Assembly (NCBI GenBank): GCA_963714885.1
Contig: CAVQQV010000004.1
Coordinates: 24,779-88,778 of the forward strand
DNA: 64,000 nucleotides
Reading direction: 5' to 3'
Source: Candidatus Sulfomarinibacteraceae bacterium
GTDB taxonomy: Bacteria; Acidobacteriota; Thermoanaerobaculia; Thermoanaerobaculales; Sulfomarinibacteraceae
Shown: positions 15,221-16,026 of the stretch, piece by piece
Layout: each line of letters opens with the position of its first letter
Position numbering within the stretch: the first letter of the stretch is position 1
The notes under the pieces: model-generated
Database searches by the model: none
What the model was told of the DNA's origin: nothing
Seen by the model: the letters and a program-made list of their open reading frames with translations, nothing else
Program-made: the position numbers and the translations under genes

Positions 15221-15281
15221 CAGCGACAGCGGCTGTCACCAGGGTCAGCAACAGGTTGCAGCGGCAGCGACCGCGACAGCC
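15221..15281. repeat. left arm of interrupted inverted repeat flanking four-helix-bundle gene 1
   Basis: CAGCGACAG (15221-15229) and CAGCGACCGCGACAGCC (15265-15281) are exact reverse complements of 15923-15931 and 15882-15898, in nested order. They are embedded in GC-rich low-complexity sequence (ACNGCN period). Confidence 0.85.
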
Positions 15282-15377
15282 ACCGCCACAGGCACCGCCA
15301 CAGCGGCTGCGCTCGGGTACAGCGACCGTGGCACGGTCACCTCCGGGTCGTTCAAATCGGTTGAGTAGCCGGTGGGC

Positions 15378-15437
15378 AGCCGATGTCAAGGGCAAGCCGG
15401 ACTCGGAGCCCGGTGCGGTGCACCCTTGACATCGGCT
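15378..15437 (+). other. 15-bp perfect hairpin (AGCCGATGTCAAGGG ... CCCTTGACATCGGCT, 30-nt loop) just upstream of four-helix-bundle gene 1
   Basis: Arms 15378-15392 and 15423-15437 are exact reverse complements. The structure ends 24 nt before ATG 15461 and 45 nt before ATG 15482. Confidence 0.85.
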
Positions 15438-15481
15438 ACCTCACCGGCTCAAGAGAGGGCATGAACGACCCGGAGGTGACC

Positions 15482-15838
15482 ATGTCCAACGCCCTCGCCA
15501 ACACCAAACTCATCGCCCACGAGAAGGCTCTTGCGGCAGCTGGTGATGCCATTTCGCTCGTCCTGCGGGTGCCGGCTCCCCTCAAGTCGATTGCCGATCA
15601 GGTGATCCGCTCTGCGAGTTCCGTCCCGGCCAACCTCGCCGAAGGCCACGGCCGGTCCGGACGCGATCGGGTGCACTTCTGGAGGATTGCCTACGCATCG
15701 GCCAAAGAGGTCGACAGCCACCTGCGACTTCTGGAACGAGCTGGGGCCGTCAACACCGGTAAAGCCGAGAAAGTGCTCGAGACACTCGATCAGGTCCGCG
15801 CCATGACCTGGCGGCTTATCAACCCGAAGACTGAATGA
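15482..15838 (+). CDS. four-helix-bundle protein (23S rRNA intervening-sequence protein / Avd-like family)
   Basis: MSNALANTKLIAHEKALAAAGDAISLV...SVPANLAEGHGRSGRDRVHFWRIAYASAKEVDSHLRLLERAG. It shares the (A/S)N(L/I)AEGxGR...A.(A/G)S..E signature and ~120-aa size with the copy at 31537..31899. GGAGG lies 5 nt upstream of ATG 15482 (alternative ATG 15461; track start 15383 unlikely). Confidence 0.7.
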   Translation: MSNALANTKLIAHEKALAAAGDAISLVLRVPAPLKSIADQVIRSASSVPANLAEGHGRSGRDRVHFWRIAYASAKEVDSHLRLLERAGAVNTGKAEKVLETLDQVRAMTWRLINPKTE

Positions 15839-15881
15839 CCACGACTCCGTACCGGGGCCGGTCGCCGTCGCCGGCTGCTGA

Positions 15882-15931
15882 GGCTGTCGCGGTCGCTGAA
15901 TCCTGTTCCTGCCTCTGTCAACTGTCGCTGT
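15882..15931. repeat. right arm of interrupted inverted repeat flanking four-helix-bundle gene 1
   Basis: GGCTGTCGCGGTCGCTG (15882-15898) and CTGTCGCTG (15923-15931) are reverse complements of the left-arm cores. Confidence 0.85.
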
Positions 15932-15991
15932 CCCCGCCGCTGGCATCGACTCGTATCAGCGCGCGCTTCTCGATGGGGCGGGTGGCCGGAA

Positions 15992-16026
15992 AATTCCGAA
16001 TTCCGAATTCCGAATTCCGAATTCGT
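15992..16026. repeat. heptanucleotide tandem array (AATTCCG) x5
   Basis: aattccg aattccg aattccg aattccg aattcgt read directly. An AT-rich island in GC-rich DNA that ends 4 nt before the pmbA stop codon (16030-16032). Confidence 0.95.

Follow-up and report, generated by a model that had tools for sequence, protein, structure and literature searches.

A four-helix-bundle gene cassette between ychF and pmbA of a Candidatus Sulfomarinibacteraceae genome, a probable worn copy of a mobile PF05635 element

The genomic window analyzed here comprises 64,000 nucleotides of a Candidatus Sulfomarinibacteraceae genome (GenBank assembly GCA_963714885.1, contig CAVQQV010000004.1, positions 24,779 to 88,778). 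Between ychF and a PmbA/TldD-family gene (hereafter pmbA) it holds a gene for a four-helix-bundle protein of the PF05635 family (copy A), which is preceded by a predicted hairpin and placed between two complementary, repeat-rich outer arms (Table 1). Genes annotated as PF05635 or 'four helix bundle protein' number in the thousands. To our knowledge, the sole PF05635 member with a known role is Avd of the diversity-generating retroelements (DGR), and we know of no explanation, since the early 1990s, for the intervening sequences (IVS) of rRNA genes that carry PF05635 genes; Ralph and McClelland reportedly described a protein-coding 23S rRNA IVS in Leptospira in 1993. We consider it probable that the inserted unit is one worn copy of a mobile PF05635 cassette of the same kind as the protein-coding 23S rRNA IVS. 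The family is dispersed in Ca. Sulfomarinibacteraceae (Thermoanaerobaculia, Acidobacteriota) with 9-22 or more copies per genome; its full-length copies have defined ends, a target duplication and a defined target, and its arrival at the window site was lineage-specific.

Table 1. Positions in the window of the cassette, its parts, the host flanks and further features treated in the text.
Feature	Positions	Strand	Basis or remark
Whole inserted unit, without both outer ends	15226-15989	+	Comparison with the empty site L208 and DNA homology to copies elsewhere
Left outer arm, GC-rich tandem 6/7/12-mers (CAGCGA, CAGCCACCGCCA)	15220-15331	+	Repeat search, Tandem Repeats Finder (TRF), homology to other left arms
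Inner 153-nt hairpin	15332-15484	+	Minimum free energy (MFE) -115 kcal/mol, z -10.9
PF05635/TIGR02436 four-helix-bundle gene, copy A	15482-15838	+	118 aa and stop codon
Right outer arm, with repeats of (NNCGCTG) type that complement the left arm	15839-15944	+	Aligns with right arms of other copies
Right spacer, ending in the G-rich box GGGGCGGGTGGCCGG (15975-15989)	15945-15989	+	
(AATTCCG) array, 4.7 copies, 100% match	15992-16024	.	TRF; resident at the site, right junction of the insertion
ychF, host flank	14089-15165	-	PF06071 and PF01926; orthologues found in relatives
PmbA/TldD-family gene, host flank	16030-17592	-	PF19289 and PF01523; stop codon 16030-16032
Copy B cassette	31496-32015	-	Open reading frame (ORF) 31540-31899, flanked by (TAGCTNT)n on one side and its inverted form (ANAGCTA)n on the other
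ORF-less inverted heptamer pair (TTCGGAT)n ... (AAATCCG)n	20368-20476	.	Build of cassette arms with nothing between

Copy A is the only gene of the cassette, which has no transposase inside, and DNA likeness between the window and copies at other loci extends from approximately 15221 to approximately 15944, i.e., from outer arm to outer arm. An earlier reading made from the letters alone (the sequence-only reading) had recognized the ORF, its AEGxGR signature (here AEGHGR) and its antisense orientation to both flanking genes, all of which hold; the product has 118 aa followed by a stop codon and not the 119 aa given there. The ATG at 15461, 7 codons upstream, is the start used by most gene callers in relatives and yields 125 aa; an exact look-up of the 118-aa product returned no database record. 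The cassette lies outside any rRNA gene, as Rfam at the gathering threshold found only a tRNA and a tRNA-Sec in the window, and no known RNA family for the hairpin or the arms.

Membership of copy A in the family, as presumed in the sequence-only reading, was supported by PF05635 (23S_rRNA_IVP; E 6e-18, 65.4 bits, cut-off 33.8) and by the NCBIfam model TIGR02436 'four helix bundle protein' (69.6 bits, cut-off 24). The AlphaFold2 monomer model (predicted local distance difference test score, pLDDT, of 93.8) has helices at residues 3-27, 32-56, 60-86 and 92-113. Its best Foldseek matches were the uncharacterised XCC0516 (2GSC, template modelling (TM) score 0.81-0.85) and BT_0352 (2RLD, TM 0.79-0.86), followed by the DGR proteins Avd 4DWL and 8UB7 (TM 0.74-0.77); five chains are present in each of the depositions 2GSC, 2RLD and 4DWL. 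Copy A has no match in PHROGs, and PADLOC returned none for copy A or for copy B, the only other family member in the window, which matches a PHROG annotated as DGR Avd. This match, together with the shared Pfam superfamily and four-helix-bundle fold (PMC10053308), could suggest that copy A is a remnant or the accessory gene (Avd) of a DGR, but sequence identity to Avd is 11-15%, the Avd equivalog NF033474 (cut-off 80) is not matched by copy A and scores 33.9 bits with copy B, the neighbors are ychF and pmbA, no reverse transcriptase (RVT family) occurs in the gene tables of the orthologous regions (approximately 9-42 kb of the window), and no template/variable repeat pair was seen in the repeat search. 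We regard a DGR origin as extremely unlikely.

Both inverted-repeat cores of the sequence-only reading are present: the 9-nt core at 15221-15229/15922-15930, its right half one position off the 15923-15931 given there, and the 17-nt core at 15265-15281/15882-15898, which is nested in a 29-nt repeat with 83% complementarity and in a larger 66-nt repeat (15220-15285/15872-15937) with 71%. TRF reported rows at 15259-15291 and 15265-15304 in the left arm. As in an IVS, the ORF is enclosed by a predicted stem from both ends of the insert. When the arms alone were joined by a tetraloop, the MFE of the construct was -123 kcal/mol as compared to -103 ± 4.9 kcal/mol for 200 dinucleotide shuffles, none of which was as good (z -4.08), and the local complementarity score of the arms was 42 as compared to 20.2 ± 3.6 after shuffling and 15 in direct orientation, in agreement with the pairing that had been proposed. 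The arms are of low complexity and their exact cores are short (9 and 17 nt), as would be expected if the inverted repeats were chance matches in GC-rich low-complexity DNA, but given both shuffling results and the retention of the arms in dozens of copies the probability of this is negligible.

Across 36 copies, the complementarity score of a left arm was 35.8 with its own right arm, 32.7 with a foreign right arm and 17.1 ± 3.9 with shuffled sequence, and copy-specific covariation of the outer arms was not found in this set. Since own and foreign arms pair alike, the complementarity derives from a family-wide repeat unit and not from copy-by-copy compensation; every copy within the family uses the same CAGCG-type repeat. 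These results, together with the heptamer units common to protein relatives elsewhere (see below), do not support the proposal of the sequence-only reading that the requirement is structural rather than sequence-specific.

Located in the 3' arm of the inner hairpin are the Shine-Dalgarno motif GGAGGTG (15472-15478), both possible start codons (ATG at 15482 and, alternatively, at 15461) and a near-invariant TTGACA at 15426-15431. Of 79 related loci, 76 have this hairpin, closed precisely at the ATG. In an alignment of 67 copies 94.1% of the cells were paired and 16 of 45 pairs showed compensatory double changes; none of 500 shuffles reached the observed values, and sliding the partners reduced pairing to 25-46%. 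Judged from these alignments, the predicted start-codon hairpin is conserved with compensatory changes. It had been missed in the sequence-only reading, as had the multi-copy dispersal, the terminal repeats and the target duplications described below. A role of the TTGACA as -35 box for a leaderless transcript starting at 15461 is speculative, because no acceptable -10 box was found after it. The inner hairpin might keep read-through transcripts untranslated, comparable to the fold-back inhibition of the insertion sequences (IS) IS10 and IS50. In these, as Mahillon and Chandler reportedly set out in 1998, an upstream inverted repeat within read-through transcripts pairs with the ribosome-binding site of the transposase gene. 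Here the upstream arm of the conserved hairpin likewise pairs with the Shine-Dalgarno motif and start codon of the cassette gene; unlike in IS10/IS50, this gene is not a transposase gene, the hairpin is much longer (153 nt), and the promoter scan found none. A separate observation concerns L007 and L009-L011, which include the most recently amplified copies, and the more divergent L008: in these the near-invariant CCCTTGACA of the hairpin 3' arm is changed to GAATAACA, which opens the hairpin top.

The further copies that the sequence-only reading had suggested searching for were found in a scan of one genome per species, which returned at least 303 relatives; the best 80 of these were examined as detailed loci (numbered with the prefix L). 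In addition, 3759 protein relatives of copy A are in the database at E < 1e-5, the best 120 of which are 79-96% identical, many of them on contigs of approximately 1 kb. The best 80 of the at least 303 relatives all belong to metagenome-assembled genomes (MAGs) of Thermoanaerobaculia/Ca. Sulfomarinibacteraceae, except L050 on an 8.6-kb contig labelled Chondromyces sp., and three single MAGs contain at least 9, at least 15 and at least 22 copies. None of the best 80 relatives has the ychF/pmbA context. One near-identical gene lies between genes for an amino-acid permease and a Rieske oxygenase, and two others, 3.4 kb apart, have Band_7/Peptidase_M19 and acyl-CoA dehydrogenase/RsgA neighbors. 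Four copies on different contigs of one MAG (L007, L010, L011, and L012) share 98.2-99.9% identity along 822 bp but lie in unrelated flanking DNA, which indicates recent movement. Of 71 ORFs compared, 69 are intact, with a median ratio of nonsynonymous to synonymous substitution rates (dN/dS) of 0.148 over 2524 pairs, i.e., under purifying selection.

Full-length members of the family are approximately 820-870 bp long and have no transposase. From left to right, a terminal repeat and a CAGCG-type arm are followed by the hairpin and the ORF, then by the complementary arm with a G-rich box behind it, and finally by the right terminal repeat, before which some sublineages have an internal (AATTCCG)n or (AAATCCG)n array. 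The terminal inverted repeats of approximately 28 bp (GGYTCATCCGGAAWW.CGTGAGGTSG) are both present in 29 of the 80 loci, 765-940 bp apart. The 8-bp flanks of 36 elements match each other at a mean of 6.67 of 8 positions and exactly in 11 cases, as compared to 5.0 of 8 and 2.3% exact matches for cross-paired flanks; the consensus of these target duplications is NAACGTTN (N-A-A-C-G-T-T-N), usually inside tandem 7-8-mer arrays. ORF-less MITEs (miniature inverted-repeat transposable elements) of 141-323 bp bounded by the same terminal repeats occur in metagenomes.

Several observations concern the arrays and neighboring elements themselves. Another short element type, which shares the terminus GGTTCATCCGGAAAG, immediately adjoins a four-helix-bundle element in L010 (7931-8200) and L007 (4552 onward), again inside AACGTTN arrays, the insertions there being nested or tandem. 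In 770 kb (84 loci L004-L087, L209 and the window) there are 136 AT-rich period-7 arrays, the lengths of which peak at 31-33 nt (approximately 4.5 units) with no monotonic decay, hinting at a length constraint. The idea that heptamer arrays are piled-up footprints of target duplications gained no support from any test.

MITEs and mobile insertion cassettes (MICs) are non-autonomous elements with IS-like ends, without and with a passenger gene, respectively (PMC3129680). The family resembles them in the terminal inverted repeats, the 8-bp target duplications, the length of approximately 0.8 kb and the missing transposase of its full-length members, in its many copies per genome and in sharing its ends with the shorter ORF-less MITEs. 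In contrast, all its members carry one and the same passenger gene, on which purifying selection is strong, the cassette has nested internal inverted arrays plus the start-codon hairpin, and the window copy, unlike the family, has neither the ends nor the duplication.

The history of the window site was reconstructed by comparison with close relatives. In L208, where the YchF protein is identical and the DNA is 97-99% identical to the window, window positions 13395-15225 and 15990-16196 are aligned with only 84 nt between them in place of 15226-15989. Homology of this 84-nt spacer to that of L086 and L087, which are more distant and both have no element between ychF and pmbA, makes L208 the empty site. 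The cassette has thus replaced approximately 84-95 nt of ancestral spacer, and no target duplication is present at the window copy. The right spacer, absent from L208, aligns to the G-rich box in front of the internal heptamer array of the full-length copies L018, L023, L025, L033, L044, and L046. L084 and L085 (YchF 94% identical) share the junctions of the window and are missing 15272-15921; they are arm-only relics of a sister lineage, in which the 650-bp core between the arms was later deleted. Further arm-only relics are at L004 (6899) and in L148, so that the ORF-less relics anticipated by the sequence-only reading exist, and the empty and relic states establish that the region is neither ancestral nor invariant among relatives. 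As the distribution of these alleles does not track YchF similarity, presence or absence of the cassette is polymorphic and recombining. Two observations on the spacers themselves are a separate element of approximately 215 bp inside the (AATTCCG)n of L085 (spacer 3521-4030), with terminal inverted repeats CGCGCGTCTCCGG ... CCGGAGACGCG of its own, which makes such arrays hot spots at which elements of more than one type insert, and, in the cassette-less spacers of L086 and L087, 3-4 copies of the repeat GGCACCTCCGCCGCACGCGACTCGTTTCC together with AACATTGTT/AACAATGTT hairpins.

The sequence-only reading had described the (AATTCCG) array beside the pmbA stop codon as following the unit and given it as five copies up to 16026. 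The array is indeed present; its fifth unit is imperfect, so that it comprises 4.7 copies to 16024 and ends 3-5 nt before the stop codon. It adjoins the pmbA stop codon also in the empty site L208 and in L086 and L085, and its presence in both L208 and L086, which have no cassette, identifies it as ancestral to the site and outside the cassette. The right junction of the insertion falls exactly at this resident array, the unit of which is also internal to full-length copies, and this suggests recombination through arrays. A likeness of the pmbA 3' end to the right terminal repeat in one alignment was discarded as coincidence, since the same coding sequence occurs in element-less relatives.

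An ordinary host gene family that grew by duplication, with the stems as host regulatory or terminator structures and nothing mobile, would account for the purifying selection on the ORFs and for copy B, which is stable, syntenic and protein-identical in four other assemblies. Near-identical copies with unrelated flanks, full-length copies with terminal repeats and target duplications, and the presence, absence and relic states at one site among close strains do not fit such a family, nor were terminator-like sites found in 15000-16200. This reading, which the empty site and the statistics of the duplications contradict, is very unlikely.

Copy B is 28% identical to copy A in pairwise alignment and has different arms (Table 1), as the sequence-only reading had stated of this family member at 31.5 kb; none of its relatives was found among the retrieved Sulfomarinibacteraceae/Thermoanaerobaculia loci. 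Relatives of copy B were searched by tblastn against plasmids, which returned 30 records, mostly from cyanobacteria, and 13 loci were inspected. Counting the window copies, the flanks are significantly complementary (z 4.5-21) and built of tandem 7-mers in 12 of 14 PF05635 loci from five phyla; the two exceptions are L213, with the inverted array further upstream, and the decayed L221. Two of the genes separate cas6 from cas4; cmr2 and cmr3, the ribonucleotide reductase subunit genes and other such neighbors are likewise parted by a PF05635 gene. One locus (L222, Azospirillum lipoferum) is a genuine 23S rRNA helix-45 IVS with the PF05635 ORF between inverted CAGAGGA/CGGATGA 7-mer arrays. The S23p ORF in the helix-45 IVS of Coxiella burnetii has tandem GACAGAT heptamers upstream, their number varying between strains, and the first of these repeats is where RNase III cuts (PMC4990558). 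The inverted 7-mer build in 12 of 14 loci, a true 23S IVS included, indicates that the comparison with rRNA IVS drawn in the sequence-only reading was right, and the Coxiella heptamers agree with it. AGCTAA-type units are common to copy B and its relatives in Pseudanabaena (55% identity) and Calothrix (51%), and the Nostoc 7120 and Stanieria proteins, 80% identical, both have GGCAGAR units, which suggests that repeat sequence and protein subfamily are linked.

Some of these loci deserve mention in their own right. PF05635 cassettes are located between cas6 and cas4 on plasmids of Pseudanabaena and Anabaena sp. 90 (L213 and L225) and between cas10/cmr2 and cmr3 on a Picosynechococcus plasmid (L215). 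A statistical link of '23S rRNA IVP' with loci of clustered regularly interspaced short palindromic repeats (CRISPR) has been reported (PMC10910872), and cassettes inside CRISPR-Cas operons may explain it. On plasmid gamma of Nostoc sp. PCC 7120 (L220, 663-3228), an 84-nt (GGCAGAG)n/(CTCTGCC)n pair with 88% complementarity encloses an ISL3-family transposase gene together with the four-helix-bundle gene. Comparison with the Stanieria locus (L217) suggests that the IS was inserted into the cassette between left arm and ORF; an ISL3-type enzyme as mobilising partner found no support, the Nostoc 7120 transposase being a secondary insertion inside the cassette.

With the 23S rRNA IVS the window cassette shares the protein family, the position of the ORF inside a long interrupted stem, arms of tandem heptamers (GACAGAT in Coxiella, CAGAGGA/CGGATGA in Azospirillum) and a translation start beside or inside the stem, and IVS are likewise regarded as selfish and horizontally acquired. 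Unlike an IVS, the cassette lies between protein-coding genes and antisense to them rather than in an rRNA helix, its family is multi-copy with terminal repeats, target duplications and the extra start-codon hairpin, and its ORF is under purifying selection, whereas that of Coxiella is decaying. Intergenic heptamers are a further point of comparison. Named examples are the short tandemly repeated repetitive (STRR) sequences of cyanobacteria, the GGGAATC-type repeats of Xanthomonas and Nostoc (PMC4692102) and TAACTGA of Beggiatoaceae (PMC4679880), and the papers on Nostoc/Xanthomonas (PMC4692102) and Beggiatoaceae (PMC4679880) draw no link to PF05635 genes. As here, such repeats are AT-rich or G-rich 7-mers in few units beside start or stop codons, sometimes in inverted pairs, and abundant in lineages with many PF05635 paralogues; in the present family, in contrast, the arrays are the arms, targets or junctions of a gene cassette. 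No description of PF05635 genes as dispersed cassettes with heptamer arms was found in the literature searched, which places heptamers beside the ORF only for the Coxiella IVS.

We propose that full-length copies would be moved in trans by a DDE-type transposase, by analogy with MITEs and MICs. The window copy may have entered by recombination of the internal (AATTCCG)n of an element with the chromosomal array, aided by a short microhomology on the left, or alternatively may have been inserted in the ordinary way and lost its two ends thereafter. The outer arms would, in RNA, form a stem that RNase III can cut as in rRNA IVS. As a working guess, the protein binds the repeat arrays or the stem of its own cassette.

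A number of results weigh against the reading of the window unit as a worn mobile cassette. No match to the terminal repeat was found in the window at up to 2 mismatches, and the window copy has no target duplication, so that its own mode of arrival is an inference. A transposase with matching ends was not found: hits in the metagenome scan comprised only chance matches (for example L169, inside an ArsR-like coding sequence) and non-autonomous copies, and blastn of the terminal repeat against plasmids gave only hits with E >= 2. A cognate autonomous element was thus not found among the retrieved loci, the metagenome scan and the plasmids, with the MAGs covered only partly. A scan of 15000-16200 for sigma-70 promoters and intrinsic terminators found nothing. 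A second subfamily (L053-L081) has the same core with quite different outer ends (ATCACTGCTGTCCAAAACAGA...), and the terminal-repeat shell may accordingly be secondary, a vehicle that is not intrinsic to the cassette. Finally, purifying selection as strong as this, across dozens of paralogues, is not usual for a gene that is just a passenger, and suggests that the protein matters to the element or the host beyond the explanation given here.

An alternative is a cassette that is self-sufficient: the bundle protein, probably as a pentamer, would recognise the heptamers of its own arms and promote copying or recombination into arrays or hairpin tips, the terminal-repeat shells would be secondary, and ORF-less arrays would be landing pads or arm-only debris. 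Such a protein would fit the repeat unit that tracks protein relatedness across phyla (the AGCTAA-type and GGCAGAR groups), the two different outer shells around one core, the repeated origin of arm-only relics, the right junction of the window copy at a resident array, the preference of AT-rich heptamer arrays for 31-33 nt, the five chains of the deposited structures and a dN/dS of 0.15 across dozens of paralogues, as expected of a propagation protein. Yet no catalytic motif can be recognised in the helical bundle of 118 aa, the association of unit with protein comes from only two or three groups, and the S23p protein of Coxiella is apparently not made in vivo (PMC4990558). Terminal repeats and 8-bp duplications moreover already account for mobility in this lineage. 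We hold self-sufficiency to be rather unlikely, and continue to prefer a cassette moved in trans.

With similarly low confidence, the idea can be extended to the family at large. Non-DGR PF05635 proteins could be dedicated partners of heptamer arrays, each subfamily recognising the unit of its own arms, with cassettes spreading between arrays or hairpin tips (rRNA helices, and operon spacers such as cas6/cas4); the excess of intergenic heptamers, noted for a long time in Nostoc, Xanthomonas, Beggiatoaceae and these Acidobacteria would then be largely arm-only debris and landing pads.

The remaining features of the window are listed here as observations. The spacer at 20313-20476, between two plus-strand genes, contains (GAATTTT) x4.7 followed by the inverted pair of Table 1 ((TTCGGAT) x5.4 and (AAATCCG) x4.7, approximately 40 nt apart), and each of the arrays lies beside a G-rich or C-rich box. 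At 39580-39633 a (TTTGAAT)-type array begins immediately behind a stop codon; after the array comes CCCACCCACCCACCC, which on the opposite strand is GGGTGGGTGGGTGGG, a textbook G-quadruplex motif. The pairing of a G-rich box with a heptamer array recurs at 15975-16024 and inside full-length elements. Farther away, a tRNA-Sec gene (60138-60232, Rfam 76 bits) lies beside an opposite-strand tRNA gene (59971-60043), and a SelA gene is located near ychF in the relatives L086 and L087.

The same cassette build is thus encountered in rRNA genes, inside operons and in ordinary spacers across five phyla, with one lineage in which mobility can be demonstrated by defined ends, an 8-bp duplication and a defined target. 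For annotation, the cassettes matter since they break short-read assemblies, many relatives being found on contigs of approximately 1 kb, and insert within cas operons. The protein is under purifying selection in dozens of copies per genome, and the repeat unit seems to follow the protein subfamily. Taken together, these findings make two old questions testable, namely what the IVS proteins do and where the intergenic heptamer repeats come from.

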